Origin: an uncultured Candidatus Saccharibacteria bacterium
GTDB taxonomy: Bacteria > Patescibacteriota > Minisyncoccia > Phycocordibacterales > UBA9973
Direction: 5' to 3'
DNA: 64,000 bases
Assembly (NCBI GenBank): GCA_964361705.1
Contig: CAYIBP010000001.1
Span: 26,727-90,726 of the forward strand
The position numbers were made by a program, and so were the translations under genes. This document shows, piece by piece, positions 26,860 to 53,428 of the stretch; position 1 is the first letter of the stretch, and every line of letters begins with the position of its first letter. Below the pieces are notes generated by a model that ran no database searches, was not told where the DNA came from, and worked only from the letters and a program-made list of their open reading frames with translations.

Positions 26860-27963
26860 TTATATCCCCTCTTTCTTTAATTCCCCTATTATTTCTCTTT
26901 CTTTGCGGGAAAGTTTTTTGGGAAGTTTTATTTCAAGTTTTATTAGTAAGTCTCCGCGTTTACTCTTTGATACGGGCACGCCTCTGCCTCTGACACGCAA
27001 TATCTCGCCTATGGATACGCCTTCGGGAATCTTTACATCTATCTTGCCGTCTAGAGTTTCTATCTCGTATTCTGCGCCGAGCAGAGCATCTGTGAGCTTG
27101 AGGTCCAGATCCATCACCAAATCACTACCTTCTCTTTTAAAAACTGGATGACTCGCAACATTTATCTTTATATACAAGTCTCCTGCTGTGCCTTTTGACA
27201 CCGCTTCGCCTACACCTGTCATGCGCACCATTTCACCATTGCGAATACCAGATGGCACATTAATAGTTATTTCTTCTTGGCGACGCAAGACACCTTTGCC
27301 TTTACAAGTATCGCATTTTTCTTTTGGCACAGTACCGGAGCCCAGACACTCTTCGCAAAGCTTCGTACTTGAAATAGTACCTAGAATCGTGCGTTTTGCT
27401 TCGCGTATTTTTCCCTGGCCATTGCAATATTTGCAAGTTTCCATTTTCGTATCTTTCTTTGCTCCAGAACCACTGCAAGTCGCACAAGTCGAAGTCTTTG
27501 TTATCAAAATCTTTCTTGTTACACCAAATACAGCGTCAGCAAAAGAAATCTGTATTTCAGTAGAAACATCCCTGCCTCTTCGTTCTTGTGTCCTGCCCCC
27601 ACCCATACCGCCAGTGAAAAAATCACTAAAGATATCATTTAAATTTCCAAAATCAAATTCTGCTCCGCCATTTTGAAATCCCTGAGAAAAACCACCGAAA
27701 TCAAACCCTTCAAATCCGCCAAAGCCCTGACCTTGTCCACCTCCGCCCATGTTTGCATAGTTTGCGCCAAATTGATCGTATTTTGATCTCTTGCCGTCAT
27801 CAGAAAGAGTTTGGTACGCCTCATTTACTTCTTTAAATTTTTTTTCATCTCCTTCTTTTTTGTCGGGATGATATTTGTGCGCCATTTTATAGAACGCTTT
27901 TTTTATTTCGTCTTTCGATGCGCCCTTATTTACACCTAAAATTTCATAGTAATCCTTGCTCAT
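26860..27963 (-). CDS. dnaJ: chaperone DnaJ
   Basis: J domain with HPD (DYYEILGV...[11 protein letters not shown]), G/F-rich linker, four CxxCxGxG zinc-finger repeats, and C-terminal substrate-binding domains. ATG at 27961-27963 chosen over the upstream GTG listed in the ORF track. Confidence 0.9.
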
Positions 27964-27970
27964 ACGCACA

Positions 27971-29437
27971 CTATATCATAGGTTCGGCTTCTTGTGAAAT
28001 TGCTTTCTGTATTTTTTCTTCATTAGAATCTTTGCCTTTGTTGGTGATAGCGGCCTTTTCTTCCGCGCTTCGGATGATAGTAGATTCTTCTTCCTCAATC
28101 AATTTCTTGGCATCTCCTCTTGATATGGCAAACTTTTTGCGTGAAGCCGCGATGATTTCTGCTTTGTATGAAGGATGCGTTGGTGGCAATATGCGCAGAG
28201 TCTCGGCAGAAAATGGATCATAACTTTCTCCATCTATTGTCATTTTTATATATATTTCCCCCACTGCCAGATTGATCATATCCTTCACACCGAAAAGCGG
28301 ATCGAATTCTGGTTTTAGTTTTACAGCGTCCTCCCCCCCCACACGAAATGAAATAATACTTCCAGTATTTCCTAGCACCGCCTGATATATTTTCGGATTT
28401 ATTTGGCCGACATATTGGTGCGCCATGGTCAGATTGAGTCCGTATTTTCGCGCCTCTGACAAAATGTTTTCAAATGTTTGCGTCACGACATTTTGAAACT
28501 CATCAACATATATGTAAAAATCAACACGATCTTTCTCTGGAATATTGGCACGCTCCATACCCGCCTGTTTTATCTTGGTCAAGAACATAGATCCAAAGAA
28601 AGAAGAATTTTCTTCACCTATGCGTCCTTTAGAAAGATTGATAAAGATTATTTTCTTCTCGTTCATCAACTTGCTTATGTCTATGCGGTTTTCCTTTTGC
28701 CCGAAAATATTTCGAAGCAATGGATCAGATAAAAACTGCCCGAGTTTGTTGACGAGCGGTATGATAGCGTCCGTGTCGAACTTTTCAGACCAATCGGCGA
28801 ATTCGATAGCGAAGAATCTTTTCACCATATCGTCTTGGATGTACTCCACCACTTTCTGTCTGTAATTTCTATCCGTCAACATCGAAATCATTCCACGCAT
28901 AGTGGCGTATGGGTAGTCTAGGAGCGCCAGACAAGTAAAACGAAAAACGTGCTCCAAACGCGGAGTCCAGTTGGCACCGAATTGCTTTTGCAAAACTTCG
29001 ATCAAACCCTGCGTCAATTGGAATTTGAACTGCGGATCGACATTCGACAGTGGGTTGAATGATGCGGGATATTCTGTGTCAGATGGATCAATAATGCACA
29101 CATCTTCAATGCGTTCTTTGGGTATATAATCAAGCATTGCCTCTATCACATCACCGTGCGGGTCGATAAGACAAAGACCGTGCCCATAAGTCACATCTTG
29201 ACGAAGCATCAGCTCGAGGAGCTTGGTCTTGCCGACACCAGACTTGCCTATGATATACAAGTGCCTGCGTCTGTCCACGCGCTTGATACCGAAAATAAAT
29301 TTCTTTTCTTCAAGAGCCGCGACATAATTGGTACGCCCGATAAAAGAAACCTCTTCAGGCTTGACCTTGCCAAAAACAGGTAGCTCTGGCGGAGGCGGAC
29401 CGTATTTTATTATCTGCACTCGATTGGGCTTAGACAT
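27971..29437 (-). CDS. soluble P-loop ATPase of the FtsK/HerA/VirD4-TraD (T4CP-like, AAA_10/DUF87-type) superfamily, paralog 1
   Basis: Walker [12 protein letters not shown], Walker [11 protein letters not shown]-terminal TMAHQY...[16 protein letters not shown] block resembling T4 coupling proteins. No TM helices. Stop lies 7 nt from the dnaJ start. Confidence 0.6.
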
Positions 29438-29442: not shown

Positions 29443-29736
29443 TTAAGAAAACTGCCTCATAAATTTATAAGAAAAAGGTTCTGCGTATTTTTCCAAAATA
29501 TTTCTCTCGTATTTATCCAATTTATCATATCCTAAGATAAAATTCTTGATCACGCTCCATTCTTCCCTGCCCGCTGGTTTGATGTCTCTAAAAGTCAAAA
29601 TCTGATCAACAATACCTAAAGCGCGTGTTTTAGCATTATTAGCAGCTTCTATTTTTTTTGAATCAAAAAAAGAAAAAAGTCTTCCTATTTCAGGATGCAA
29701 ATTTGCCATATAAAAAAGAGAATCTTTCTCAATCAT
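29443..29736 (-). CDS. hypothetical protein
   Basis: 97 aa ORF. 4-nt overlap with upstream ORF and 5-nt spacing to the ATPase suggest an operon. No recognisable motifs. Confidence 0.35.
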   Translation of the reverse strand: MIEKDSLFYMANLHPEIGRLFSFFDSKKIEAANNAKTRALGIVDQILTFRDIKPAGREEWSVIKNFILGYDKLDKYERNILEKYAEPFSYKFMRQFS

Positions 29737-30089
29737 TTCAAATCAATATATTTATGAATAACTTTAGTTCCTTTTTTTATTACTTCCTGATTATCAATAG
29801 ACCGTGTTCTGTTGCCTTGATTCGGTTTAATATTCACCATCGAGTCAAATTCTAAAACACCATCAGGGTTTTCTTCAAAACGAATATTAAAACCCCAAAT
29901 ATTTTCAAATTTTGATCCTGTACTGGTTAGAAGTTCAGAACTTTCAATATGATAATCTCCCCCCAATGCTACCCTTTCTAGTTCTATGTCAACGGTTCCT
30001 TTTATCATCGTGCTATACCAAAATAGGGCCATTTTTTTAACTTCATCTATTGAAACCTTGTGATCTAAAACAATTATCTGTCCGTTCAT
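29733..30089 (-). CDS. hypothetical protein
   Basis: 118 aa ORF, first gene of the apparent 30089->26860 reverse-strand transcription unit ending in dnaJ. No recognisable motifs. Confidence 0.4.
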   Translation of the reverse strand: MNGQIIVLDHKVSIDEVKKMALFWYSTMIKGTVDIELERVALGGDYHIESSELLTSTGSKFENIWGFNIRFEENPDGVLEFDSMVNIKPNQGNRTRSIDNQEVIKKGTKVIHKYIDLK

Positions 30090-30136: not shown

Positions 30137-30186
30137 ATACCAAAGGTGCCCTTTCGCACCACAGTGCGAAAGGGCACCTTTGGTAT
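30137..30186. promoter_or_regulatory. perfect 23-bp-stem hairpin/palindrome ATACCAAAGGTGCCCTTTCGCAC-caca-GTGCGAAAGGGCACCTTTGGTAT
   Basis: Read directly; followed by a 10-bp direct repeat of cctttggtat. Lies between the stop of the GC-rich ORF 30324-30899 and the start of ORF 29733-30089, so it could be a terminator, an operator, or both. Confidence 0.5.
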
Positions 30187-31851: not shown

Positions 31852-33522
31852 CTAATAAACCTCCTGTTGGTAACAACTCTCGCAGTACACTATCTCTTTG
31901 TTCTCTGGTGAATAATTTGTATTTATTTCCTTTTTGCATTTATCACACTGTCGCTTCCAGAATTTATATGGTCCACGAATATTTATCCTTTCTTTATGTC
32001 TGCAATAAAAACATTTGCGCGGAATAGGCAGGATCATCTTTCTGTAAAACAAGAATTCTTGCGCTGTAATTTTATAATTCCTCTTGCAATCTATACAGGC
32101 AAGTACTTCAGCCAAAATACCATCCGTCACATCTTTTATATGGTCTGGTATTTGTTCTGATTGCACTGTTTCTTTGCCTTCCGTTTTCTGCAGATCATCC
32201 TCCCATCTAAAACCTTGCGCCAGCACTTCTTCTTTTGTCATCGGCATATTGTCCTGCCCTATCGTTTCATTATAAGCAAAGGGAGCAAGATCTGGGGGCA
32301 TCATTAAGCCATATAGATTTTTTGATTTTAATTCTTGTATGATTAGATTTTTTAACTTTTCATATTCTTCCTTGCTGTATTCTTTGTTGAATATGGCATA
32401 TTTAGTGTTTTTAAGCGCATCACATCCTACACAATCTTGGCAATTTGTAGTGTAAAAACAGTAAAGCATATTATTGCCATGCTCAAGACCATAAGAACCT
32501 ATAATATTGCTCGAATGCCCCACTGCCACTACTTCGAGCAATCTTTCGCAGGAGGTACCATAGCCTATGGTACCATAAGAATCTTTAATTTCTTTTGAAG
32601 AAAATAAATATCGGCAATCCTCACCTCTTGCCACCTCGAAAGAATCTTTGACGTTTTTACAGTTAAAAAGATAATCTCCAGAGGAATCTATACTTTTTGG
32701 ATCATTATTTTCTTTTACTGGATATTTCAAACATAAATCTTTAAACTCTTTTTTAAAAGATTTCGTTTTTGAGAAACTTCCTTGTATTTCTTTGACTTTG
32801 TTCCAGTATTCTTCTTGGGTATATGGTTCATTTAGAAAGTGATAAGACTTATTGTTTAAATTTACACAACCAAAGCAATTCATCACTCCCCTGCAATTTT
32901 GGACAAAAGCGCTATCCACCGATCCAAAAACATTTTTTCCCCATAGAATGCCCGAAGATTCTTGAACATTGACACTTTCATAACATCGTTCGGTTTTTGT
33001 GGCAAAATACATATCCGAACAATCCTTGATATCTTTCGCTCCTCTAGTATAGAGAGTTTCTTCGGCAGGCCCGGTATTGAAAACGAGATAGCAATTCTTG
33101 CATCCGCCTGCCATATTCGTATATTCGCTGTTTTGATTTGGTCCGTATCCAGAAGAAAGATATGTGGTGATCTTCGGTACTTTTATCAAAAATTCTTTCA
33201 TCTGCTCTAAAAAAGAATGGCTTGGGTCATAATCCATGGCGTAATCTTTTGGATCCCATTTGTCGGAATAAAAACATTCGTGACAATATATCTTGTAAGG
33301 AGATTTTGGATTGTACATCGATATTATGCTCTTGTCGCATAAATCACAACGTCTGCCTGAATAAAGAGTGGTTTCGTTTCTCCACAGCGCACGCATTTTA
33401 AATCTGCAAGACGGACAAACCTTTGGGTTCGGCACTTGCATCTTTTCATAAAAAGAAATTTCGTCCTGATCTAGAAAAAAATCAGTGAGGCATTTAGTGC
33501 ATTTTTTCGTTTCTGTACGCAT
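31852..33522 (-). CDS. cysteine-rich multi-zinc-ribbon protein, novel family, paralog A
   Basis: 556 aa, >45 Cys, no signal peptide. N-terminal module CxxC...FYEKMQVPNPKVCPSCR...RCDLCDKS...YCHECF. C-terminal module of the same pattern (CIDCKRNY...FYRKMILPIPRKCFYCR...QCDKCKKE...YCESCYQQEVY). Internal repeats C-x2-C-x-G-C...Y-x-KEEY. Paralogous to 35576-37288, 37255-39012 and 41611-43377. Confidence 0.6.
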   Translation of the reverse strand: MRTETKKCTKCLTDFFLDQDEISFYEKMQVPNPKVCPSCRFKMRALWRNETTLYSGRRCDLCDKSIISMYNPKSPYKIYCHECFYSDKWDPKDYAMDYDPSHSFLEQMKEFLIKVPKITTYLSSGYGPNQNSEYTNMAGGCKNCYLVFNTGPAEETLYTRGAKDIKDCSDMYFATKTERCYESVNVQESSGILWGKNVFGSVDSAFVQNCRGVMNCFGCVNLNNKSYHFLNEPYTQEEYWNKVKEIQGSFSKTKSFKKEFKDLCLKYPVKENNDPKSIDSSGDYLFNCKNVKDSFEVARGEDCRYLFSSKEIKDSYGTIGYGTSCERLLEVVAVGHSSNIIGSYGLEHGNNMLYCFYTTNCQDCVGCDALKNTKYAIFNKEYSKEEYEKLKNLIIQELKSKNLYGLMMPPDLAPFAYNETIGQDNMPMTKEEVLAQGFRWEDDLQKTEGKETVQSEQIPDHIKDVTDGILAEVLACIDCKRNYKITAQEFLFYRKMILPIPRKCFYCRHKERINIRGPYKFWKRQCDKCKKEINTNYSPENKEIVYCESCYQQEVY

Positions 33523-33526: not shown

Positions 33527-35536
33527 TTATTCCAATATCTTTCTCAGCACATCTTCAGGCACTTCTTTTATTTTTGTCTTGGGTGTTTCTTCTTCTTTTA
33601 TTTCTTCTTTTTTTATATTTTTAGATTCTATAAAACTTTTCAATTTATCCATATCTTCTGCGCTCGCTGCGCGATCTTTTGATGATTTTTCTTTTTTAAT
33701 TATACTAGGTGCTTGTTCTTCTTTTAAAATACTCAGGGGCACGGGTGCATGCACAGCAGGTCTCACAAGGGTAACGAGGTCAGACTTTTTTTCTACTTCC
33801 TCTGATTTTACCTTTGATTCTTCTGCGATAGTTTTATTTAAAATATCCCTTAGAGCTGGGTTGCCATTTTCTGTACGAGCTATTTTTAGTTTGTTACCAG
33901 TAAACACCTTCTTCATTCTTGAAAATACACCCTCTCGCACAGGCGCTATATTCCTCGTCGTACTGTCTCTTTCTTCTTCTTTCTTGGGCTCGAATTCTAT
34001 ACCCAGATCGGCCAGTGGTTTATAAAACTTAGCATCATCTCTTTTGTTTTCTCTTGAAAAACCCGTAGCGACTTTTAATTCCCCTGTCTTTATTTTATCC
34101 ATACAATCCTTACAATACACAGGCCTGCCTGGCGTAGGCTTGAAAGGCACTGTGGTTTCTTTTTTGCAATTAGAACAAATGATCGGGAATTTCTCTCCGG
34201 TCATATTATCTCCATCATTGCCTAGAGACATTCCGCTCCAATCATTGATCTCTTGCTCCACTACTTCTCTTGGTCTGCAATACAGCGCGCGCGAAGACCT
34301 AATCACTTCTTGTTCTATCTCCTTGTTACCCGACTTTACTAAAGGCGATAAGGTCTTGGCTGAAAAAGGTCTCGATGTCGTACCATCAATCATAAGCTTC
34401 AAATAAATTTTGAAATTCGGTAAGTTTAAAATATCTTGCGGTGTGAATTCTGGCTCAAATTCTTTTTCCAAAAACTTTGCATCATCAGCGCCGACTCTGA
34501 AAACAATCATCGTGCCCACGTTGCCAAATACTGCATCTCGAACACTAGAATTCTTATCAGCTATCAACTGTGCCGTGTACTGATGGGCCACAGTCAAATT
34601 GAGTCTATATTTTCGAGCTTCAGACAAAATACCTGCAAAAGACTCCGTAACGAAATTTTGGAATTCATCAACATATAGATAGAAATCTTTTCTCTCGTCT
34701 TCGGGTATGCGCACACGTTCCATAGCGGCGAGCTGAATCTTGGTAATTATCATTCCCCCTAAAAGCGAAGAATTGTCTTCACCTATGCGCCCTTTTGATA
34801 CATTTACAAGAAATATTTTTTCTTGATTCATTAAATCAAAAATATCCACTGTGCTTTTAGCCTGACCAACGATATTTCTGATGATAGAGGTAGAAAGAAA
34901 CTGCCCAACTTTGTTTTGTATCGGCGCAATGGCTTCATTTCTAAATTTATCCTGCCAAGCTTCGTATTCGTGAATCCAGAATGCTTTAATAACAGGGTCC
35001 TTCAAGTTTGCTATTACCTTTTGACGATAATCTTTATCCACCAAGAGCCTCGGTATACCGAGCAATGTCGAACCTGGAGTATCAAGCAGTGCCAAGATAG
35101 CATTGTTCAAAATATATTCCATTCTGGCGCTCCAAGCATTTGCCCAAATCTTTGTGAAAATACCCATCAAACCCGAAGCTACGAGATGTTTATATTTTGG
35201 ATCCAAAAGTTCGAGAACATTAAAACCTATATGATACTCCGTATCAGCAGGATTGAAATACACCACATCTTTCATTCGATGTGGAGGAATAGCCGAGAGT
35301 ACTGCTTCGACATTTTCTCCGTGAGGATCAACCATACACACACCATCGCCATTTTCGATGTTCTGAATAATCATGTTGAACATCAGGGCGGATTTACCTG
35401 TACCGGATTTTCCAAGTATGTACACATGCTGACGGCGATCTTTACGCTTTATGCCAAAGAGAGTATTCTTGTCCCTATAAGTAGTCTGACCTACATAAGT
35501 AATCTCTTTATTTTTTGGGATTCCCAAGAGTTCCAT
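33527..35536 (-). CDS. soluble FtsK/HerA/VirD4-TraD-like P-loop ATPase, paralog 2, with C-terminal zinc ribbon and K/E-rich tail
   Basis: Walker A ILGKSGTGKSA, Walker B YLYVDEFQNF, LTVAHQY...GNVGTMIVFRVGADDA block. Extra C-terminal CSNCKKETTVPFKPTPGRPVYCKDC zinc ribbon followed by a ~200 aa lysine/glutamate-rich tail. No TM helices. Confidence 0.6.
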   Translation of the reverse strand: MELLGIPKNKEITYVGQTTYRDKNTLFGIKRKDRRQHVYILGKSGTGKSALMFNMIIQNIENGDGVCMVDPHGENVEAVLSAIPPHRMKDVVYFNPADTEYHIGFNVLELLDPKYKHLVASGLMGIFTKIWANAWSARMEYILNNAILALLDTPGSTLLGIPRLLVDKDYRQKVIANLKDPVIKAFWIHEYEAWQDKFRNEAIAPIQNKVGQFLSTSIIRNIVGQAKSTVDIFDLMNQEKIFLVNVSKGRIGEDNSSLLGGMIITKIQLAAMERVRIPEDERKDFYLYVDEFQNFVTESFAGILSEARKYRLNLTVAHQYTAQLIADKNSSVRDAVFGNVGTMIVFRVGADDAKFLEKEFEPEFTPQDILNLPNFKIYLKLMIDGTTSRPFSAKTLSPLVKSGNKEIEQEVIRSSRALYCRPREVVEQEINDWSGMSLGNDGDNMTGEKFPIICSNCKKETTVPFKPTPGRPVYCKDCMDKIKTGELKVATGFSRENKRDDAKFYKPLADLGIEFEPKKEEERDSTTRNIAPVREGVFSRMKKVFTGNKLKIARTENGNPALRDILNKTIAEESKVKSEEVEKKSDLVTLVRPAVHAPVPLSILKEEQAPSIIKKEKSSKDRAASAEDMDKLKSFIESKNIKKEEIKEEETPKTKIKEVPEDVLRKILE

Positions 35537-35575: not shown

Positions 35576-37288
35576 TTAGTATATTTCCTTCTGATAGCAA
35601 CTTTCACAATACACTATTTCTGGTCTATCTAGTGAATATGAGGTTTCAAATTCGTTAGAGCACCTTTCCTTCATGCATTTCCGATGCCATAGTTTTAAAG
35701 GATTGCGCGATTTCATCCTCCTATCATTCCGGCAGAAAAAACAATTCCTAGGCAAAGGTACCTGCATTCTCTTATAAAAAAGCAATTCTTGATTTGTAAT
35801 CTTAAAATTACGATCACAAGACCCACAAACCAGAACTTCGTTTATAATGTCTTCCACAACATCATTGATATCATCTGGTATGTTTTCTTGTGACATCGTT
35901 TCTTTGCCTACGGTACGTTTGAAATCATTCTGCCATTTCAAGCCACGAGCCTCTGCCTCGCTCTGTGTAAGAGGAAACATTGAGAGGGCCTCTGTTTCGT
36001 TGTAATTAAAATAAGACATTCGAGCGGGGAAAAATTCTCCCCACTCTTTTGTTTTTTTCATTAGCTCAATGATCTCATTTTTTAGTTTAAAATATTCTTC
36101 TTTTGTGTATCTTTTATTCAAAATTACATACTCTCCTTTTTTGACACTCGCACATCCAAAGATATTGTTGCACGAATGGCAATTGTCACAATAAGCAATA
36201 TCTTTATCCTTCCATGAATAAATACTAAAAAGATTATTATAAGATTGGTCTGGTGTTGCCGCCTCATAAGAATATTCCACCTCTCCACCACCGGACAAAT
36301 CGTAACAATCCTTAAACTTTACACCATTGTAGACGAATCTTGATTCCTCGCTAAACGGGGCAAAGAAAGAATCTCTGGTGTGTTTTGCCTCTATCAGATC
36401 ATTCCCCGTACAATTCAGACAATTACGAAACATCGCAAACCGACGCGGATATTTTAAAATAAATTCCTTAAACTCCTTCTCAGCCCTCTGCCAACCAGTA
36501 AAAGTATTCAAGGCGTAAGATTTCAAAATATCTTCATACTCTTCCTTGCTGTATTGTTTGTTACGAAAATAATATCTCTTGCTTCTCAAGCCAAAAGACA
36601 TAAAACAATCGCTACAATCACGACAGTCATAACAAAAATCACAGTTTTGTAGCGAATTACCATATATCACATATCTGCACTTATAACACTTATCAATCAA
36701 AATTGACTCGTACATGAATTCATTAAAATCATAAGCACCAAGACAATCGCACAGTTCCCTGCCCTCATTTAGAAAACAAGAATACATCACGCTCTCTAAT
36801 TTCCAAGAAATAAAAGTCATGTAACAATTTTTAGAAAATGCAACATCGTGACAATAAGGACTATTCATACTGGAAATACCATCATCGTTCATCAGGGCGA
36901 TCTTTGGCACTTTGTGATTTAGTTCCATGTACTGTTCAAAAAAAGATTTGTTCGGATCAAAATCCTGTCCGTATTTGTATGGATCCCAGTTGTCGTTCCA
37001 GAAACACTTGACGCAATAAACGACCAAATCAGAGTCAGGTTTGTAAATAGAAAGAGTGCTCTTGCCACACAGATCGCACGAACGATTGTACAGATTGTAT
37101 GTATTCCTCCAAGCCAACCTGCGTTGACTTCTACAATCTGGACAAAAAGTCGGGGGTGGCACTTTGATTTTTTCATAAAACCCAAAATCGTCAGATTCTA
37201 TAGTGAAATCTTTTTTACAGTTTTGACAATTGCGGGTTTCGGATTGCATATATTTTAATATACCTCTTTTTTGTAACAATCTTCGCAA
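35576..37288 (-). CDS. cysteine-rich multi-zinc-ribbon protein, novel family, paralog B
   Basis: 570 aa, same architecture as paralog A: N-term CQNCKKDF...FYEKIKVPPPTFCPDCRSQRR...CDLCGKS...YCVKCF; C-term CGSCDRNFKI...FYKRMQVPLPRNCFFCR...CSNEFETSYS...VYCESCYQKEIY. Confidence 0.6.
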   Translation of the reverse strand: MRRLLQKRGILKYMQSETRNCQNCKKDFTIESDDFGFYEKIKVPPPTFCPDCRSQRRLAWRNTYNLYNRSCDLCGKSTLSIYKPDSDLVVYCVKCFWNDNWDPYKYGQDFDPNKSFFEQYMELNHKVPKIALMNDDGISSMNSPYCHDVAFSKNCYMTFISWKLESVMYSCFLNEGRELCDCLGAYDFNEFMYESILIDKCYKCRYVIYGNSLQNCDFCYDCRDCSDCFMSFGLRSKRYYFRNKQYSKEEYEDILKSYALNTFTGWQRAEKEFKEFILKYPRRFAMFRNCLNCTGNDLIEAKHTRDSFFAPFSEESRFVYNGVKFKDCYDLSGGGEVEYSYEAATPDQSYNNLFSIYSWKDKDIAYCDNCHSCNNIFGCASVKKGEYVILNKRYTKEEYFKLKNEIIELMKKTKEWGEFFPARMSYFNYNETEALSMFPLTQSEAEARGLKWQNDFKRTVGKETMSQENIPDDINDVVEDIINEVLVCGSCDRNFKITNQELLFYKRMQVPLPRNCFFCRNDRRMKSRNPLKLWHRKCMKERCSNEFETSYSLDRPEIVYCESCYQKEIY

Positions 37289-39012
37289 TAAAGCATGTTA
37301 TACCCTTCTTCTAGGTTAAACACAGACTCTATCTTTTTATTGCATTTTTTACAAGAAGTCTGATATTTTTTGGCAGTCAAAAACATGGCGAGTTCTTCTT
37401 GCATGCGTATCATCGGATGCGTGTCCGGTAGCGGAATTTTCATTTTTCTTAGAAATTGAAGTTCAGATTGGATAATCCTAAACGGTCTGCCTGTGACTTT
37501 ACACTCTATGGCTTTTTCCACAATATCATCATTCACATCATCTATATATTTTGGTATATCTGCATTCGTCAGTATTTGTTCGTTTGATATATTGGTTTCT
37601 GGCTCCTCGGCTATATAACCACCTAGTTTTATAATTTGTTCCTCACTCAAAGGGAAAACAATTTGGCTCAATGAAAAATTGTATGCTTGAGCAGAAAATT
37701 CCATACCTAAACCATCGCCATACTCGCCTATCTTTAACATTTCATATTTAATTTTATCCAGTAGTTTATAATATTCTTCTGCAGAATATTGTTTATTCAA
37801 AATACAATAGGATTTATCCCTTAAACCAAAACACATAAAACAATTGCTCAAATTACTGCAATTAAAAACAAATTCGCAATCAAGAAGTATTTTTGAATGT
37901 GAAGAAAATTTCACATTGCTGGAATGATTGCCAGTATTTATAGTGCTATACAACAAACTGGAATGCCCTCCAGAAAACAGCGTATCCATAGAATCATTCA
38001 GAAAAAAACTTCCATCTATATGCCGTACATTTTCTGTGTCTTTTGAAGCAGTAGCATCAAAAATATTTTTAGCATCTCTGAGCAACACACCATTACAATT
38101 TTCTATGTTTGTATTAGCAGAAGCATTTATTGGCGAAGATTTAACGAGCAACCAAAATTTATCTTCCATATCTTTTATTTTCTCTCGCGACAGAGGATAA
38201 ATGGATTTGATAAAATCTTTGTATTCTTTTTCCGAAAGTTGTTTATTCCAAACACAATATTTCGCATTTCTAAGGTTCACTGAACCAAAACACTTGTCAC
38301 AGTTTCGACATCCAAATAAAAATATACTATCTGTGCAATCTTTTGAAAAATAAACAAAAGAAGATTTATAAATATGATCAGAATAAACACTACCATAAAC
38401 ATGATCAGATTCATCTATAACTCTGGAATCCATGCCGTCTTTGACTTTATTCATTGAATTGCAATACCAAAGATTTTCAGAAAAAAAGCAACCTGTCACA
38501 TAATAACCATTCTTTAGGTTTCTACCGCCATTTGAATATTCACTATTTATTGTCGAAGGATCTTTGTTTAGAAAAGATGGCATGGGAAAAACTTTTCGAA
38601 GCGCAAAAAGTATAGCCAAAGGACTTGCGCCGTCCTTGTACTCCAAGCCAAAAGAAAAAGCATCGAAACTATCACCCATAAAATATTTATAATCATAAAC
38701 AGGAAAAGGACACTCTTTCGGAAATATAGATATCATTGATTCGTTGTGGTTAGATACATTGCAAGATCTTTTAAAAAGTCGGGAGCTATCTTTTTGTGTT
38801 AATCTTCTGATTCTCCTACAAGTAGGACAAAAGTTTGGAGCTGGAACTCGAAGCATTTTTAAAAATTCTATATCGCCTTTTGATATTTCAAACTCTCCCT
38901 CGCAGTGTATATGCAAACCCGCCCATCTGCAAACACGAGAGTGAGGAGTAAGATTTGCCAAAATTTCGTCTAGCAACTTATCAAATCTGGGTGTTTTTGA
39001 CACTGATTGCAT
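37255..39012 (-). CDS. cysteine-rich multi-zinc-ribbon protein, novel family, paralog C (most divergent)
   Basis: 585 aa; internal CRNCDKCFG...KEY and CSNLSNCFMCFGLRDKSYCILNKQYSAEEY repeats; C-terminal ...KKCNKKIESVFNLEEGYNMLYCEDCYKKEVY. N-terminal module degenerate (HxxC...CPTCRR). Confidence 0.55.
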   Translation of the reverse strand: MQSVSKTPRFDKLLDEILANLTPHSRVCRWAGLHIHCEGEFEISKGDIEFLKMLRVPAPNFCPTCRRIRRLTQKDSSRLFKRSCNVSNHNESMISIFPKECPFPVYDYKYFMGDSFDAFSFGLEYKDGASPLAILFALRKVFPMPSFLNKDPSTINSEYSNGGRNLKNGYYVTGCFFSENLWYCNSMNKVKDGMDSRVIDESDHVYGSVYSDHIYKSSFVYFSKDCTDSIFLFGCRNCDKCFGSVNLRNAKYCVWNKQLSEKEYKDFIKSIYPLSREKIKDMEDKFWLLVKSSPINASANTNIENCNGVLLRDAKNIFDATASKDTENVRHIDGSFFLNDSMDTLFSGGHSSLLYSTINTGNHSSNVKFSSHSKILLDCEFVFNCSNLSNCFMCFGLRDKSYCILNKQYSAEEYYKLLDKIKYEMLKIGEYGDGLGMEFSAQAYNFSLSQIVFPLSEEQIIKLGGYIAEEPETNISNEQILTNADIPKYIDDVNDDIVEKAIECKVTGRPFRIIQSELQFLRKMKIPLPDTHPMIRMQEELAMFLTAKKYQTSCKKCNKKIESVFNLEEGYNMLYCEDCYKKEVY

Positions 39013-39072: not shown

Positions 39073-40977
39073 TTATTTTTTATCCTCCCCTTCTTTAAAT
39101 TCCACATCGTGAACTTCTGGTGGTTGTTCTTCGGCAGTAGTCCCCGTATTAGGATTTGCCTGTCCTGCTTCAGCATTAGCTTTCTGCATGGCTTCGCCTA
39201 TTTTTGACATTTCAGCAGAAAGCTCTTCGGTTGCTTTCTTTATTTTCTCTCCATCAGTACCATCTTTTACTTCTTTCAAACCAGCGATCTTTTTATTCAC
39301 ATTTTCTTTTACATCTGCTGGAAGTTTTGCCTCATTGTCTTTTAGAGCTTTCTCCGCAGTGTACATCATCATCTCTGCAGTATTTTTCACATCAACCAAC
39401 TCTCTCTTTTTCTTGTCTTCCTCTGCGTGAACCTCTGCATCTTGCTGCATTTTCTTTATATCTTCATCTTTGAGTCCAGAGCTTGCCTCTATTCTGATAG
39501 ATTGAGTTTTACCGGAAGCTTTTTCCATGGCTTTCACATTCAATATTCCATTTGCATCTATGTCAAAAGTTACTTCGACTTGAGGCATACCACGTGGAGC
39601 AGGTGGTACACCGTCTAGCACAAAGCGACCGAGGGATTTGTTGTCGGACGCCATTGGACGCTCACCTTGAACTACGTGTATCTCTACAGAAGTCTGATTG
39701 TCTGCGGCGGTAGAAAATACTTGAGATTTTGAAGCAGGGATTGTAGTATTTTTTTCTATCAACTTTGTAGCCACACCTCCCAATGTCTCAATACCCATAG
39801 ATAGAGGTATGACATCCAAGAGCAAGACATCTCGTACATCTCCTGCTAGCACTCCACCCTGGACAGCCGCGCCGAGCGCCACGACTTCGTCTGGGTTGAT
39901 AGACATATTTGGTGTTTTACCAAAAAGATTTTTCACAGCTTCCACCATCATCGGCATTCTGGTCTGACCTCCGACCATGATGATCTCGTTTATTTCATTC
40001 ATTTTGAAAGGAGAAGCTTCCACAGCTCTCTTTGTAATCTCAATAGATCTATCCACGAATTCTTTTGCCAAAGATTCCAATGTCGCGCGAGACATCTTGA
40101 GTAACAAGTGCTTTGGCCCTTCGGCATCAGAAGTAATAAAAGGAATATTTACTTCCGCTTCCATCGTGGTAGAGAGTTCATGTTTCGCCTTTTCAGCTGC
40201 TTCTTTCAGTCTCTGTAATGCGAGTGAATCTTTACGCACATCCACGCCTGATTCCTTTTTGTACTCATCTGCTATCCAATCAATGATCTTGCTATCTATG
40301 TCTTCACCACCCATATGACTGTCGCCATCAGTAGATTTTACTTCGATTACATCTTCTCCTATTTCAAGCACCGACACATCGAATGTTCCACCACCGAAGT
40401 CATATACCACAATCTTTTCATTTTTCTTTTTATTAAAACCATAGGCAAGCGCTGCCGCGGTAGGCTCGTTTATTATTCTCTTTACATCAAGACCGGCTAT
40501 TTGTCCGGCATCTTTTGTCGCCTTTCTTTGCGCGTCGTTGAAATACGCAGGCACAGTGATCACCGCTTCGGTAATCTTAACACCAAGCTTTGCTTCTACA
40601 TCAGCTTTTATTTTCTGCAAGATCATCGCGGAAACTTCTTCAGGACGATAAAACTTGTCGAGCATTTTTACTTTTACACCACCATCTTCACCCGCTTCTA
40701 TTTCGTAAGGAGCGCTCCCTTTGTCTTTTTGAACTCCTGGATCGCTGAACAGATGACCCATAAAACGCTTGATGCCGTAAATGGTATTTTTAGGATTCGT
40801 GACTGCTTGCCTCTTTGCCACTTGTCCCACCACACGACCTCCGCTTTTTGTAATAGCAACTATCGAAGGCGTGGTCCTGTTGCCCTCGACATTTTCAATA
40901 ATCTTTGGCGCGCCACCCTCAATGATAGACACCGCCGAATTTGTTGTACCCAAATCTATTCCTATTATTTTACTCAT
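39073..40977 (-). CDS. dnaK: chaperone DnaK (Hsp70)
   Basis: [33 protein letters not shown] motifs and C-terminal lid with EEVD-like acidic tail. Confidence 0.95.
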
Positions 40978-41053: not shown

Positions 41054-41080
41054 AAACAGTATATATGATAAGATATCCAC

Positions 41081-41614
41081 ATGTCAAGCAAATCTGGATA
41101 TTCCAGTAAAATACTTAAAATATTGGCTGAAAAACCGGCACTTTCTCTGGAAGCTGTAAAAGAAAACTCGAACAAAAAAGACAAAAGAGAAGAGTATTCT
41201 TTAAACAGATCTGTCAAAAGTCTCACTGAAGCCGGCTGTGTTGAAATAATACGCTCAGAACACAAGGATTATTTACGACTCACTAAAAAAGGAAAAAATA
41301 GATTGAATAGTTTGCGTATCGGAGACACAGATGCCTTGGTACCACAAACTTGGGATGGGTTTTGGCGAATTGTGATATTGGATTTACCCGAAGACAGAAA
41401 AAACGAACGCGAATCTTTGCGATACCTTTTGAAAAAAGCAAACTTCGTTTGTGTGAAAAATACTGTTTGGATTTCGCCACACCCATACGAACATCTTTTT
41501 ACAAATATAAAAAAAGATTTAGGACTCTCTACAGAAATGATGATAATAACGACAAACAACCTAGATGAAGAAACTCATAAAGCATTCCTCAAAGAGATAG
41601 GTGGGCAATCTTAA
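41081..41614 (+). CDS. uncharacterised winged-helix + Cas2/VapD-like fold protein (paralog of 4789-5349)
   Basis: 177 aa; WDGFWRIVILDLPEDRKNERESLRYLLKKANFVCVKNTVWISPHP aligns with the C-terminal block of 4789-5349. Divergently transcribed from dnaK. Confidence 0.45.
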   Translation: MSSKSGYSSKILKILAEKPALSLEAVKENSNKKDKREEYSLNRSVKSLTEAGCVEIIRSEHKDYLRLTKKGKNRLNSLRIGDTDALVPQTWDGFWRIVILDLPEDRKNERESLRYLLKKANFVCVKNTVWISPHPYEHLFTNIKKDLGLSTEMMIITTNNLDEETHKAFLKEIGGQS

Positions 41615-43377
41615 TACACTTCCCTTTTATAACATTCTTCGCAATAAACTTTTTCGGTTCTGTCTGGAGAATACGGAGTTTCAAATTCGTTTGAGCATTT
41701 TTGATCGTGTCCGTGAGTGGTATTATCGCAAACACAAACTCTGTGCCATAAATTCCTAGGCGTGCGAAGCTTTTGTCTCTCTAAATATCTGCAATCAGGA
41801 CAAAATTCTGGTATCGGAACACTCATTCTTTTGTATAAATCGAATTCAGCTAAAACAATGTTGTAATTTTTGCTACATTTTTTGCAAGCAAGAACTTCTT
41901 TTGTTATTGTATCTGGCGTATTTGAAATACTATCAGGCAAAGTCTTTAAAGTTTCTTTACCAAAAGTACCTCCCAAATCATCTGCCCATTTAAAACCCTT
42001 CTCTAAAGTGTCTTCTTTAGTCAGTGGCATATATACATTGCCCTGCGTTTCGTTGTAACAAATAGGTGAATACTTCGGCGGGAAAAATTCTCCCCATTCG
42101 CCTGTATTCTTCATATGTTCTTTTATCTTTTGTACAAGTTTTTCATATTCTTCTTTGGTGTATTGCTTGTTGAATATACAATAAGAATTCTTTTTCAAGG
42201 CTACGCACCCGAAAAGATTTTGACCGTTGTGACAAGAATCGCAATAATACGCAAAAGTATTGTCGTAGGACAAATTGCAAGAAATCAGGTTAGATGAGCG
42301 CACTATCGCGTGAGAATTATACACGAGTTCTGTTTGTAGCCCCACATGATACACATCCATACAATCTTTTGTATCTGGAGACATCGCAGCAAAATGCACA
42401 TTTTCAGCTCGCTCTATATCAAACACCCTTTTGGAATTCTTGGAATTTAGCACAATATTGCCTGTGCAATCCACCGACTTATCTATCACAGCACACCTGT
42501 GCACCGCCTTTTGTTTTATCATATTTATATACTCCGCGTATAATTTATCTCGCGTAGCTCTGGAACCCAGATACATTTCTTCCATTTTTTTCTTATAGTC
42601 TTCTCTCGTGTATTGTTCATTATTTATACAGTAACTCTTATTGCGCAAGTTGTAACACATAAAACAATTTGAGCAATTCCTGCAATCATAAGAATAAAAA
42701 CAATCAGAACAATCCTTTAAAAACTTTCCGTACTGGCAATTGTAAAGATTCTCTCCATCTATACATTCATAACACATCGAGATATTCATAGGGTTGTAAA
42801 GGCAATCCACGCAGTCTCTGCCCTTCTCCCAAGTATTTGTACAGTAGAGCATATTTTCGCAATTGAACATGCAAAAAGACAGGTAGCAATCTTTATTGTC
42901 GCCAGCGTGATTTGTATAGTCAGAGTTAATAGTATTCTTATTGAGCAAAGCTATCCTCGGACACTCTAGTAACAGATCATAAAACTGTTCAAAAAATGGT
43001 TTTGTAAAATCAAAATCGCGCCCATAGTCAAGCGCGCTCCATTTGTCGCTCCAAAAACACGAAGTGCAAAAAACCTTAAAAGGCTTATCTGGAGAATACA
43101 CTGTCACTATAGACTTGTTGCATAAATTGCACACACCCCTATACAGCCTCCTTTCATTCCTAAAAGCATATCTGATCTGTTGCCTGCAATCAGGGCATTT
43201 GTCCGGCACCGGCACATCCATCTTTTTATAAAAAGCAAAATGATCCGGCTCGATGGTAAAGCTAGCCTTGCAACTCTGACAAGTCGCGGACACTGAGTTT
43301 GACGAATGTGTTTTAGTTTCCTGTTTCTCCATTGTATTCAAAAACATTGACGCGTGCTGGACGCAAAACTCTTTCAC
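41611..43377 (-). CDS. cysteine-rich multi-zinc-ribbon protein, novel family, paralog D
   Basis: 588 aa; N-term CQSCKASF...FYKKMDVPVPDKCPDCR...CNLCNKS...FCTSCF; C-term CKKCSKNYNI...LYKRMSVPIPEFCPDCR...CSNEFETPYS...VYCEECYKREVY. The 5' end overlaps the grpE 3' end, so the true start is probably an internal Met (MEKQETK). Confidence 0.6.
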   Translation of the reverse strand: MKEFCVQHASMFLNTMEKQETKTHSSNSVSATCQSCKASFTIEPDHFAFYKKMDVPVPDKCPDCRQQIRYAFRNERRLYRGVCNLCNKSIVTVYSPDKPFKVFCTSCFWSDKWSALDYGRDFDFTKPFFEQFYDLLLECPRIALLNKNTINSDYTNHAGDNKDCYLSFCMFNCENMLYCTNTWEKGRDCVDCLYNPMNISMCYECIDGENLYNCQYGKFLKDCSDCFYSYDCRNCSNCFMCYNLRNKSYCINNEQYTREDYKKKMEEMYLGSRATRDKLYAEYINMIKQKAVHRCAVIDKSVDCTGNIVLNSKNSKRVFDIERAENVHFAAMSPDTKDCMDVYHVGLQTELVYNSHAIVRSSNLISCNLSYDNTFAYYCDSCHNGQNLFGCVALKKNSYCIFNKQYTKEEYEKLVQKIKEHMKNTGEWGEFFPPKYSPICYNETQGNVYMPLTKEDTLEKGFKWADDLGGTFGKETLKTLPDSISNTPDTITKEVLACKKCSKNYNIVLAEFDLYKRMSVPIPEFCPDCRYLERQKLRTPRNLWHRVCVCDNTTHGHDQKCSNEFETPYSPDRTEKVYCEECYKREVY

Positions 43378-43966
43378 CCAGCTTGTAACCCTTTTGAATC
43401 ACTACGGAAATTTTATGATTGTCTTCTTGTTTATCGGTAGCAGTAATATCCATAGATTGATGAAGATTTGGATCAAAATCCTCGCCCACACGACCTATCT
43501 CTTTCACACCATATTCTTCAAAAATAGTATTGAGTTGAGAGTAAATATATTCCACTCCCTTGCGCCAATTTTGATCTACTTTTTCCCATGCTTCTTTGTT
43601 GGCAAAAGCCATATTAAAACTATCAATCACGGACAAAAATCTGGTCAACATGCGCTCACGCATAGCTTCTGAGAAGACTGCTTTTCTGTCTTCCTCTTGT
43701 TTCTTGAAATTCGCAAAATCTGCCCGCTCTTTCTGCCAACCTGTCAAATATTCTTCTTTTTCAGATTTTACCTGTTTCAGATCAGCTCGCAATTTCTTGA
43801 TAGTCTTTTTCAAGTCTTCTTCGCCGTCTTCATTGAACTCGAATTCGAGCACCTCTGTATCATCAGAAACACCAGAGGCGCCATCATCTGTTTCTTTCCC
43901 CTCTCCCGCGGGAGAAGAGCTTTGTATTTCATCGTCTGTTATTTCCTTAGAATCTTCGTCTGCCAT
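43313..43966 (-). CDS. grpE: nucleotide exchange factor GrpE
   Basis: 217 aa: acidic N-terminus, long paired helix, C-terminal beta domain (…HQSMDITATDKQEDNHKISVVIQKGYKLGERVLRPARVNV). Confidence 0.9.
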   Translation of the reverse strand: MADEDSKEITDDEIQSSSPAGEGKETDDGASGVSDDTEVLEFEFNEDGEEDLKKTIKKLRADLKQVKSEKEEYLTGWQKERADFANFKKQEEDRKAVFSEAMRERMLTRFLSVIDSFNMAFANKEAWEKVDQNWRKGVEYIYSQLNTIFEEYGVKEIGRVGEDFDPNLHQSMDITATDKQEDNHKISVVIQKGYKLGERVLRPARVNVFEYNGETGN

Positions 43967-44065: not shown

Positions 44066-44710
44066 TTATTCTATTTTTACACTTTCTTTAAACACAGGGA
44101 TCACATCGAGGTATTTTGAAAAATGATTTTGACAGACATATACCCACTTGAGCTTCATTTCTTCATCACAAAGTACAGGTACGACCATGTGACCATTCTT
44201 CATGCGAGCAATAGACTTAAATAAAATTATCCTTCTGTTTTCACGATGATGTTTGAGATATTTTCTTATAATTTTAAACCATTCTATTCTTTTCTTGTAG
44301 ACTTCCTCAGGATCGCCATCTTTTGAAATGTCCTCTCCCTGCATTAAAGCGATTCCTTCTCTTATCCCGAGACATTTATCAAGCAATCCTTTATCTTTGA
44401 TATATTCATATACTTTATTGATATATAAAACTGTTAAGGCTTCCGGAATCTGACAGGTGTCAATATCTGAAAGAGAAAATTCACTTGGACCGACAGATTT
44501 AATATCTGGATGAACGAGTCTATTGATCCCAGTATAATATATGGGGTTAGGAAATAAAATTTCTGGGACTTTTAGTCTCATATTAAAAATCGCAGAGTGT
44601 TGCTCCTTTAGTTTCAACCTTCCTGCCTTTATTTTCTCTTTATTTTTAGCATCAATAATTGAAACAACGTCAATACTTTCATCCATATTGGTATAATAGC
44701 TCCGATTCAA
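44066..44710 (-). CDS. hypothetical protein
   Basis: 214 aa ORF with no recognisable motifs. Lies between the two copies of the CIRCE-like element. Confidence 0.4.
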   Translation of the reverse strand: MNRSYYTNMDESIDVVSIIDAKNKEKIKAGRLKLKEQHSAIFNMRLKVPEILFPNPIYYTGINRLVHPDIKSVGPSEFSLSDIDTCQIPEALTVLYINKVYEYIKDKGLLDKCLGIREGIALMQGEDISKDGDPEEVYKKRIEWFKIIRKYLKHHRENRRIILFKSIARMKNGHMVVPVLCDEEMKLKWVYVCQNHFSKYLDVIPVFKESVKIE

Positions 44711-44848
44711 CTATAAGGCAACGATGTCGCGGAAGTCCGACTTCCGCAAATCTTTCGCAAATTCAAAAGAATAAAAGAATAAGATAAGAGATAAGGAGAT
44801 AAGGGGACAGCCACCATTCTTTTTCCACTCTTTATTAATGTTACCCTT

Positions 44849-45028
44849 TTAAATTATTAAAAACAATGGTGGCTGACCCCAATATCTGACCCCAATATCC
44901 CCTTCCTCACCGTCTTCATTAAACTCGAAGTCCAAAACTTCAGAGTCATCTACCTCTTTTTCACTAACTTCACTGTCCTTTGCAGTTTCCTCTATTTCCT
45001 CTTCATTTGTGTCCTTTTCGTCTGTCAT
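44849..45028 (-). pseudogene. duplicated grpE 5' fragment (59 codons) fused to unrelated sequence
   Basis: Translation MTDEKDTNEEEIEETAKDSEVSEKEVDDSEVLDFEFNEDGEEGDIGVRYWGQPPLFLII*; residues 27-42 match the grpE N-terminus (…DDTEVLEFEFNEDGEE…). Preceded by a second copy of the CIRCE-like element. Confidence 0.5.
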
Positions 45029-45037
45029 ACAAGCATA

Positions 45038-45084
45038 TTAGCACAAAAATCCCTCTTTTTTCAAGAGGGATTTTTGTGCGTTAA
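45038..45084. promoter_or_regulatory. second copy of extended CIRCE-like inverted repeat (TTAGCACAAAAATCCCTC-N9-GAGGGATTTTTGTGCGTTAA)
   Basis: Near-identical to 43976-44022; left half-site here is the canonical TTAGCAC. Same distance from the ATG of the grpE fragment. Confidence 0.55.
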
Positions 45085-45115
45085 AATAAATTTAAGTTTA
45101 TAAATCCAAGTTGCA

Positions 45116-45994: not shown

Positions 45995-46154
45995 TCGAAT
46001 TATTTGATAATGCGTCTGTTTTTTCTTTTTTGAGGGATTTTGAAATTATCAGAGAGAGAGAGAGCCATGTACACAAAACAAAACCCGAAAGCGATAGCTT
46101 CCTTATCTAGACTAATAAATTGATCTCTAATACTCCAAGGGGTAATAATAACGA

Positions 46155-46439
46155 TTATAATATATATATATATATATTAGTAAACCTTCTCCAGAAAATA
46201 AAAACTGATTCTTTTAATTTTAAGACAATCAAAGAAAAGACAAGAATTGGAACAGAAATCATCGTAAATATTAAAAACAAATCGAAAGCTTTATTGCATA
46301 TATTATAGATATTTGTTTTTTGACAAAAATCGAAAAAATAATATGGCATTATAAAACGAAAAACAATAAACACTATAGATAAAACAAAGGAAATTGTAGT
46401 TATCTTTTCTTTTGTAAACCACTCAAGTAATTTCTTCAT
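46155..46439 (-). CDS. small membrane protein S1 (paralog of S2/S3, truncated), C-terminus encoded by (TA)8
   Basis: MKKLLEWFTKEKITTISF... aligns with the S2/S3 N-termini (MDKLLEWFTRKRI…). Ends NIYIYIL* where S2/S3 have FIYLFIYLFIYLF. Confidence 0.45.
   Translation of the reverse strand: MKKLLEWFTKEKITTISFVLSIVFIVFRFIMPYYFFDFCQKTNIYNICNKAFDLFLIFTMISVPILVFSLIVLKLKESVFIFWRRFTNIYIYIL
46161..46176. repeat. (TA)8 dinucleotide repeat inside the 3' end of S1
   Basis: Read directly: tatatatatatatata. Confidence 0.8.
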
Positions 46440-46445
46440 AAAATT

Positions 46446-49935: not shown

Positions 49936-50344
<409 letters not shown>

Positions 50345-50350
50345 AAAATT

Positions 50351-53305: not shown

Positions 53306-53428
53306 GTTTTTGTCTTCTGAACCAGGACTTACTAGATATGGTTCTGCTAGATTTGGGTTTGGTGGAACGCAGAGACCTTCGAGTCCATACCGGGTATGGA
53401 CAGTGTTGGTGTTTAGGTTGATGAGAAG

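Follow-up and report, generated by a model that had tools for sequence, protein, structure and literature searches.

The question raised by the window considered here (the whole 64 kb stretch that was analysed, from contig CAYIBP010000001.1 of an uncultured Candidatus Saccharibacteria bacterium) is what two ATPases that resemble type IV coupling proteins (T4CPs) are doing in what is otherwise a piece of housekeeping chromosome, encoding DnaB, RecR, CysS, ribosomal proteins and the chaperones DnaK, DnaJ and GrpE. The open reading frames of the window that were scanned include neither a relaxase nor a VirB-type gene, and in this setting an earlier note, made from the sequence of this DNA, was right to look away from conjugation; it was silent on the location of the ATPases inside a grpE-dnaK-dnaJ operon. 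The explanation favoured here, which seems to us about evenly poised between right and wrong, is that both proteins, as paralogs, provide the catalytic subunits for a non-conjugative ATPase system, encoded on the chromosome and of the coupling-protein type (i.e. having the fold of TrwB, within the FtsK/HerA superfamily) that is near-universal in Patescibacteria.

Sequence and fold of the two ATPases

The genes and the catalytic core in question are as follows.

33527..35536, minus strand: ATPase-zf, 669 aa (from the open reading frame list, Pfam, NCBIfam and PDB searches, and an AlphaFold2 model)
34247-35536, minus strand: T4CP-like core of ATPase-zf, residues 1-430
27971..29437, minus strand: short paralogous ATPase, 488 aa, without a zinc finger (from the open reading frame list, Pfam and NCBIfam)

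Both reading frames, and the motifs that the earlier note had pointed out in them, are exactly as it stated. The Walker A sequences are intact (GKSGTGKS in the 669-residue protein, GKSGVGKT in the 488-residue protein), the Walker B motif DEFQN and a C-terminal block AHQY...GN(V/T)G..I.FRVG..DA are common to both, and an identity of 46% over 427 residues (E 2e-138) makes the two proteins paralogs. Of the Pfam models that had been proposed as a check, three (T4SS-DNA_transf, TraG-D_C and DUF87) exceed their gathering cut-offs in both proteins, as does TrwB_AAD_bind; the scores in bits, with cut-offs in brackets, are 37.7 (20.5) for TrwB_AAD_bind, whose match covers residues 31-349, 27.6 (20.1) for T4SS-DNA_transf, 25 (22) for TraG-D_C and 34.5 (23.2) for DUF87. 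The fourth, the VirB4-type ATPase model AAA_10, stays under its cut-off at 18 bits against 27.5. The NCBIfam equivalog models for TraD, VirD4 and TraG reach at best 45-54 bits against cut-offs of 250-650, and a VirD4-like CD1115 model that covers residues 54-368 of the short ATPase (E 1.8e-14) is likewise far under its family cut-off. Neither ATPase has a Pfam match to FtsK_SpoIIIE at E <= 0.01, nor to the AAA or Clp models of Pfam, only generic P-loop models turning up, under cut-off.

A structure for ATPase-zf was predicted by AlphaFold2 from a 90-sequence alignment, with a mean predicted local distance difference test score (pLDDT) of 83.7. The core (residues 1-440) scores above 90, the zinc finger is confidently predicted and flexibly tethered, and the tail lies mostly below 50 except for three short helices. 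Within the P-loop domain eight helices (residues 113-237, pLDDT > 90) are inserted between the strands at 101-103 and 241-245, and in the model this insertion occupies the place of the all-alpha domain of TrwB. When the model is compared with the PDB using Foldseek, TrwB also comes first (E 4e-14; TM-score 0.62-0.66 normalised to TrwB; 14% identity), followed by Cag-beta (8e-13), HerA (5e-12), DndH-C (5e-11) and DotL (3e-10), with the C-terminal domain of VirB4 at rank 48 (3e-9). A single-sequence search of the PDB with ATPase-zf returned TrwB alone, while a profile search of PDB sequences gave TrwB (1.2e-7), DotL (1.1e-4) and HerA (6e-3), with neither VirB4 nor FtsK among its matches. By sequence and by fold, the ATPases are nearest to type IV coupling proteins, as the earlier note had supposed.

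In common with TrwB, VirD4 and TraD, then, the family has a P-loop domain with an inserted all-helical domain, and it is in this group that its best match of both kinds is found. What sets it apart is that its ATPases lack an N-terminal transmembrane (TM) domain on the same polypeptide and have no relaxase or mating-pair genes nearby, and that it is chromosomal, near-universal in one phylum, equipped with a zinc finger and only about 14% identical to TrwB. The lack of a TM helix had been claimed from the outset, and for the two polypeptides themselves this can be confirmed: using a 19-residue Kyte-Doolittle window, for which the usual TM threshold is 1.6, the best values are 1.22 and 0.92. An anchor concealed by a mis-called start is ruled out, as there are only 3 and 9 in-frame codons upstream of the annotated ATPase starts before a stop is reached. 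Across the family, however, the claim does not stand, as the anchor is there supplied by a separate upstream gene or by a fused one.

A membrane partner encoded upstream or fused

For comparison, one genome per species was taken from many candidate phyla, yielding 80 species loci of which 77 have an identifiable ATPase. In 57 of these 77 a gene for a TM protein, here called the TM partner, lies no more than 700 nt upstream of the ATPase gene, the median gap being about 9 nt and overlaps being frequent. The partner is 420-560 residues long and begins with a TM hairpin, and Walker A is absent from all 120 of the partner homologs listed. A fused arrangement also occurs: about 56 of the 150 closest ATPase representatives carry an N-terminal extension of 300-490 residues, and about half of these long forms begin with a TM helix. 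This extension has no match in the copy of Pfam that was scanned (which lacks PF26449, the precomputed Pfam accession on the partner), but the partner and the extension align end to end (residues 42-461 against 6-427, E 6e-45), implying that there has been gene fission and fusion in the family.

The AlphaFold2 model of the partner (pLDDT 83.2) shows a helical hairpin at the N-terminus together with an alpha/beta domain. Its nine best Foldseek matches in the PDB are all to TrwK, i.e. VirB4 of the R388 type IV secretion system (T4SS), with E from 1e-5 to 1e-3 and probability 1.0; the alignment extends over about 435 columns at a query-normalised TM-score of about 0.36, and everything below the top nine is noise. 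Because the partner has no Walker A motif, and because of its position in the fusions, the match is read as being to the non-catalytic N-terminal part of VirB4, and we infer on the basis of the model that the partner is like the VirB4 N-terminal domain. The ancestral unit looks like a VirB3/VirB4-style succession of TM hairpin, N-terminal domain and ATPase, in which the ATPase half is coupling-protein-like and which is usually divided between two genes. VirB4 (TrwK, optionally fused to VirB3) has this same order of TM hairpin, non-P-loop domain and ATPase, and TrwK is the partner's only significant fold match; unlike VirB4, however, the family has an ATPase half that is closer to T4CPs (E 4e-14 against 3e-9, with AAA_10 under cut-off), and its two halves are usually separate genes that lie outside T4SS loci. 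Given that a TM anchor, whether separate or fused, is found across the family, the ATPases of the family are most likely docked at the membrane.

Distribution, genomic context and previous reports

More than 8,000 homologs of ATPase-zf exist, and all the named ones belong to Patescibacteria, among them Paceibacterota, Nomurabacteria and Berkelbacteria; the best 120 of them are 67-78% identical over their full length. An exhaustive HMMER search of representatives at 50% identity matched 22,737 clusters; when only matches at E < 1e-30 are counted, 6,357 remain. The annotations carried by the homologs are "CxxC-x17-CxxC domain-containing protein" or [quoted passage not shown]. Among the 77 species loci, features were found at the following frequencies.

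Zinc finger on the ATPase: 61 of 77
TM partner no more than 700 nt upstream: 57 of 77
Sigma70_r4 + HARE-HTH protein: 43 of 77
SecD/SecF: 40 of 77
Two ATPase paralogs: 13 of 77
Cx genes (see below): 10 of 77
DnaK: 9 of 77

The commonest order is secD-secF, the gene for a protein with Sigma70_r4 and HARE-HTH (helix-turn-helix, HTH) domains, the TM partner and ATPase-zf, often followed by mnmA, alaS and the alpha ribosomal protein operon. The recurrent neighbours identified in the 80 species loci are SecD/SecF, the HTH protein, MnmA, ribosomal proteins, AlaS and SecA (assigned using Pfam or BLAST against the window's proteins, with AlaS and SecA read from the sequences and some smaller clusters left unassigned), and among them there are no relaxase or T4SS mating-pair genes. 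A crude FtsK motif scan of the fetched loci also gave no match, but as these regions were preselected that result is uninformative. The HTH protein, of about 360 aa, stands directly upstream of the partner/ATPase pair (L014-L083), as a rule behind secD-secF. It could be the regulator of the system or a third part of it, and was not found in the window by tblastn.

Orphan T4CP-like ATPases in Patescibacteria have already been annotated and flagged in the literature. A T4SS is present in most Patescibacteria, and T4CP genes are often unlinked from virB4 (PMC12102498; PMC12857230); of 5,713 T4CP homologues only 148 lie near virB4 (PMC12102498). The Patescibacteria T4SS was the first to be shown essential for growth, its presumed coupling protein being unlinked and dispensable in the sole organism tested (PMC12102498; PMC12857230), namely Ca. 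Southlakia epibionticum, where the T4CP homologue is non-essential and the T4SS genes are essential; exaptation "cannot be ruled out" according to the authors (PMC12102498). The literature that was searched contained no description of a split or fused VirB4-like partner, a motif-bearing tail, a linkage to Cx genes or embedding in an Hsp70 operon.

These reports bring to the fore the first alternative to a dedicated chromosomal system, that the ATPases are ordinary coupling proteins which, although unlinked, serve a T4SS (VirB4, VirB6, VirB8 and pilins) encoded elsewhere in the genome. The idea draws on the closeness of TrwB, VirD4 and DotL in sequence and fold, on the frequent separation of T4CP genes from virB4, and on the presence of a T4SS in most Patescibacteria (PMC12102498; PMC12857230). 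Nevertheless it appears unlikely, if far from negligible, as so few of the homologues are found near virB4 and as the homologue of Ca. S. epibionticum can be dispensed with when its T4SS cannot (PMC12102498). Moreover, the family has a dedicated VirB4-like partner and a conserved secDF/HTH context, in the present case there are two paralogs together with Cx arrays inside a chaperone operon, and no T4SS gene was found among the reading frames scanned in the 64 kb. Were it nonetheless correct, i.e. if this were only the unlinked coupling protein of a known T4SS, the finding would be an ordinary one.

The zinc finger and the tail

ATPase-zf differs from its short paralog in what follows the core.

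34091-34195, minus strand: CxxC-x17-CxxC zinc finger, residues 448-482 (Pfam and NCBIfam)
33530-34090, minus strand: tail rich in lysine and glutamate, residues 483-669, ending VPEDVLRKILE

The C4 zinc ribbon that the earlier note had recognised is confirmed by matches at residues 448-482 to zf_Tbcl_2 (E 3.8e-14) and to the CxxC-x17-CxxC model TIGR04272 (E 1.1e-14). We know of no CxxC-x17-CxxC zinc protein having a known function. The finger is of the same type as that of small zinc proteins from Methanosarcina (TIGR04272/zf_Tbcl_2), two of which, from M. mazei, have been shown experimentally to bind zinc (PMC12704099); in contrast to those, the finger here is one domain attached to an ATPase of 430 aa, and it recurs as the terminal modules of Cx proteins of about 570 aa.

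As to the tail, which the earlier note had described as some 200 residues of low-complexity sequence, its length (about 190 residues) and its richness in lysine and glutamate (16% and 14.5% respectively over residues 483-669) are as described, but "low-complexity" is only partly apt, as there are islands conserved among 120 orthologs (KFYKPLADLGIEFE and KDRAA.AEDMDKLKSFI), and in the same 120 the terminus VPEDVLRKILE is invariant. The short paralog ends in a conserved EAEPMI, and in distant lineages the terminus is either (I/L)KPG(E/Q)x(I/V)(K/R)F(D) or an amphipathic peptide of the form ..DL..LR..LKE.L... Conserved short peptides within disordered arms are typical of docking sites, and the tails of coupling proteins are known to act as docking arms, that of F-plasmid TraD binding TraM and that of Legionella DotL binding DotN and IcmSW. 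With TraD the family shares a C-terminal extension that ends in a conserved short peptide. The likeness to the Legionella complex of DotL, DotM, DotN, IcmS, IcmW and LvgA goes further, that complex comprising a T4CP ATPase with a separate membrane partner and a long tail which docks a zinc-binding protein and chaperone-like adaptors; the proposed counterparts here would be the ATPase, the TM partner, the Cx proteins and DnaK/DnaJ. The analogy is one of organisation only: neither the Cx proteins nor the partner showed any homology to DotN or DotM, and there is no Dot/Icm channel. Alternatively, the amphipathic C-terminal helix might itself be a membrane-targeting element.

The Cx proteins

Four cysteine-rich zinc-ribbon proteins, denoted Cx, are encoded in the window close to the ATPases.

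31852..33522, minus strand: Cx556, with a double zinc-ribbon module at each end; lies 4 nt downstream of ATPase-zf
35576..37288, minus strand: Cx570, next gene upstream of ATPase-zf; translation may in fact begin at the ATG at about 37249
37255..39012, minus strand: Cx585, several otherwise conserved cysteines lost
41611..43377, minus strand: Cx588, between grpE and dnaK; likely ATG start at 43332

These paralogs (556-588 aa, 27-40% mutual identity) have in common a double zinc-ribbon module at each end, with weak matches to zf_Tbcl and zf_Tbcl_2, two internal cysteine-containing repeats and an invariant C-terminus ...YCExCYxxE(V/I)Y. Cx585 has lost, in both of its terminal modules, cysteines that are invariant in its three paralogs, and is probably a degenerate, partly zinc-free copy. 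The only structural matches in the PDB are weak, LIM-domain-like ones to the C-terminal double zinc finger (E 4.5e-4). A profile search with the four paralogs together put the size of the family at 4,337 proteins or more. Among orthologs of Cx556 the identity is 63-77%, implying that these are conserved proteins rather than fast-evolving effectors. One ENA contig of 2,386 bp (P0391) encodes a protein 99% identical to Cx556, where the best match of the ATPase is 78%, pointing to a very close relative of the window's organism in a public metagenome.

In a Cx-centred sample of 35 metagenome loci of at least 12 kb, an ATPase of the family was present in 17, whereas by our estimate only a few percent would be expected by chance; dnaK was present in 7, and 25 had at least two Cx genes, with up to nine in tandem. 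The linkage of Cx genes to the ATPases is thus real, but not obligatory. The earlier note had envisaged a soluble FtsK/HerA-type motor paired with zinc-ribbon proteins, and of this the pairing survives; solubility is not supported in the form proposed, as the anchor is in most members of the family encoded by a separate upstream gene and in others fused. In six loci from more distant Paceibacteria (L018, L021, L022, L102, L134 and L141) a TM partner, one or more ATPases and a Cx array are found without dnaK, and in three of them (L102, L134 and L141) partner, ATPases and Cx arrays form a single same-strand run. Taken as a series, the loci suggest that a pair of partner and ATPase came first, that duplication of the ATPase and gain of Cx genes followed, and that the ATPases and Cx genes then moved into the Hsp70 operon. 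Some Patescibacteria show a massive expansion of the Cx family: the metagenome contig Ga0210057_1000004 (L132; 756,668 bp) has nine Cx paralogs within 21.7 kb (1-21668), with no ATPase there.

The Hsp70 region

The chaperone genes of the window, and the further features associated with them, are listed here.

43313..43966, minus strand: grpE
41081..41614, plus strand: PaaX_M-domain protein, possible regulator, divergent from dnaK, position conserved in relatives
41058..41087, minus strand: promoter-like site TTGACA-18-TATACT upstream of dnaK (11 of 12 matches; consensus match only)
39073..40977, minus strand: dnaK (Hsp70; HSP70 E 1.5e-243), first gene of dnaK-Cx585-Cx570-ATPase-zf-Cx556
30140..30183: perfect 20-bp inverted repeat with 12 G-C pairs and a 4-nt loop, between the gene for a 191-aa protein and the DUF5674 gene
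29733-30089 and 29443-29736, minus strand: DUF5674 gene and 97-aa open reading frame, directly upstream of the short ATPase
26860..27969, minus strand: dnaJ, directly downstream of the short ATPase

From dnaK through Cx556 the gaps between genes range from a 34-nt overlap to 60 nt, and a scan between these two genes revealed no convincing terminator. There follow rsmE (on the plus strand) and the 191-aa open reading frame, and then the inverted repeat, which could form a hairpin on either strand and which probably separates the upstream genes from the unit made up of DUF5674, the 97-aa open reading frame, the short ATPase and dnaJ. Within that unit the genes are 1 to 5 nt apart or overlap by 4 nt, and the stop of the short ATPase is 1 nt from the start of dnaJ. 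The DUF5674 and 97-aa pair recurs in L105 and may therefore share a unit with the short ATPase. No match to a CIRCE/HrcA operator was found in the window.

In all of the close relatives examined (L001-L010, from assemblies and genomes, and L084, L090, L105, L116, L118 and L125, from metagenomes) grpE, Cx, dnaK, ATPase-zf, Cx, the short ATPase and dnaJ are interleaved in this way, L125 having the same order but for an additional Cx gene in the interval from dnaK to ATPase-zf; every DnaK-type locus that reaches far enough has the short ATPase next to dnaJ. Elsewhere, L029 and L031 also have the ATPase locus near grpE and dnaK. An apparent order c1-DnaK-Cx in L098 was set aside, the match there being probably to a 348-aa actin-like protein rather than to DnaK. 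The conserved interleaving speaks, at the least, for co-expression of the ATPases with the Hsp70 genes, and from the gene order we infer that in this clade ATPases and Cx genes alike are expressed together with the Hsp70 machinery.

One could go further and suppose that the two proteins remodel other proteins as truly soluble motors, whether as disaggregase, unfoldase or assembly factor for Cx proteins, in cooperation with DnaK, DnaJ and GrpE. In this clade both genes are indeed part of the transcription units of dnaK and dnaJ (the shorter ATPase gene almost touching dnaJ), the loci L029 and L031 are likewise near grpE and dnaK, there is no TM helix in cis and no partner gene in the window, and some T4CPs, such as DotL and Cag-beta, are known to handle protein substrates. 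The fold, on the other hand, is not that of AAA+ or Clp proteins, and no Clp-type Pfam model is matched, while the linkage to dnaK is confined to 9 of the 77 species loci, the context seen across the family being TM partner, secDF and HTH protein. There is also a neutral explanation for the proximity of dnaK, as the ribosomal protein operon that precedes grpE in this clade is also found close to the ATPase locus of other lineages. On balance soluble motors of this kind seem rather improbable.

Less probable again is a role as nucleic-acid translocase in the handling of the chromosome, in DNA repair or in defence, comparable to FtsK/SpoIIIE, HerA-NurA or systems of the MADS/Dnd type. HerA and FtsK are members of the same superfamily, DUF87/HerA scores above its cut-off, HerA and DndH-C are among the fold matches, PADLOC reports mad8 at E 1e-14, and both the zinc finger and the neighbouring protein with its DNA-binding Sigma70_r4 and HARE-HTH domains would be in keeping with such a role. 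T4CPs are, however, consistently closer than either HerA or FtsK; there is no FtsK_SpoIIIE match and no gamma domain, and an ftsK gene is annotated in at least one Saccharibacterium (PMC10768705). Neither NurA, Sir2 or a similar partner nuclease in the window, nor Dnd or other MADS partners, were found, and a near-universal, single-locus, housekeeping distribution with about 70% identity is unlike that of defence islands. A defence system as such was rejected, as PADLOC's mad8 match covers the ATPase fold only and the Cx proteins, the TM partner and the small neighbours have no PADLOC match.

How the system might work

If the ATPases do belong to a chromosomal coupling-protein-type system, they would form a hexamer held at the cytoplasmic membrane by the VirB4-like anchor, the product of a separate gene, and serve as a substrate receptor or a translocation motor. 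The zinc finger and tail would together make up an arm for recruitment, much as the C-terminal tails of TraD and DotL do, the Cx proteins would be adaptors or clients of that arm, and in this clade the whole would be co-expressed with Hsp70, Hsp40 and GrpE. Regarding the cargo, we lean slightly towards nucleic acid over unfolded protein. Nucleic acid is suggested by descent from T4CPs, by the all-alpha domain and zinc finger, and by the HTH neighbour, which is DNA-binding; protein is suggested by the secDF/secA and dnaK contexts and the Cx arrays.

Several observations weigh against this picture. A TM-partner gene was not found in the 64 kb window by tblastn, and if this clade has lost the partner then both of the window's ATPases could be truly soluble after all. 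The match of the partner to VirB4 is itself a weak one at a TM-score of about 0.36, and which half of TrwK is aligned is a matter of interpretation. In half of the loci centred on Cx genes no ATPase is found close by, so that Cx genes are not obligate neighbours. Finally, the linkage to dnaK is specific to a clade (the 9 of 77 species loci already mentioned) and is not a property of the family, and since the neighbourhood of the ribosomal protein operon is shared with other lineages, the proximity of dnaK could stem from a local rearrangement.

A bolder proposal, and as such a doubtful one, combines these elements into a self-contained, T4SS-independent membrane translocase, universal in Patescibacteria and composed of the TM partner and the zinc-finger ATPase, which would stand alongside VirB4 and VirD4 as a third lineage. 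The polymers that it carried across the single membrane, be they nucleic acid or unfolded protein, would come from the host or from the cell itself, with the Cx proteins as cargo adaptors and, in the Nomurabacteria-like clade, Hsp70 as a chaperone arm; the partner/ATPase pair would then possibly be an evolutionary intermediate between VirB4 and VirD4. Patescibacteria are obligate epibionts with tiny genomes, in which the exchange of macromolecules with the host is an open question. What is added here for the orphan T4CP family is its own VirB4-like membrane partner, split or fused, the conserved zinc finger and peptide-motif tail and, in one large clade, the embedding in an Hsp70 operon together with expanded zinc-ribbon proteins. 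The TM partner, the ATPase or ATPases and the Cx proteins make up a testable gene set for a second, T4SS-independent machine for translocation or remodelling, and may offer a view of how VirB4 and the coupling proteins diverged.

Other features of the window and of the family

Two proteins with a PaaX_M (Cas2-like middle) domain are encoded in the window, at 41081-41614 (plus strand) and 4789-5349 (minus strand). The former, divergent from dnaK, keeps this position in all of the DnaK-type relatives and, given the lack of a CIRCE match in the window, may be the local heat-shock regulator.

Among the ATPase homologs, three representatives of about 1,200 aa (P0207, P0220 and P0243) contain the ATPase core twice in tandem, with each copy 37-38% identical to the query; judging by an amino-acid composition that looks G+C-rich, they may stem from outside Patescibacteria.

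In L001, L005, L006 and L008 grpE comes directly after rpsI, where the window has about 17.9 kb between the two (44066-61766). This insert encodes three LCAT-like lipase/esterase proteins of 956, 980 and 2,367 aa, the last of these, a giant, also having a subtilase S8 and a PKD domain, together with a PG_binding_1 protein, several open reading frames lacking a family match and an IS200-like Y1 transposase (53436-54110).

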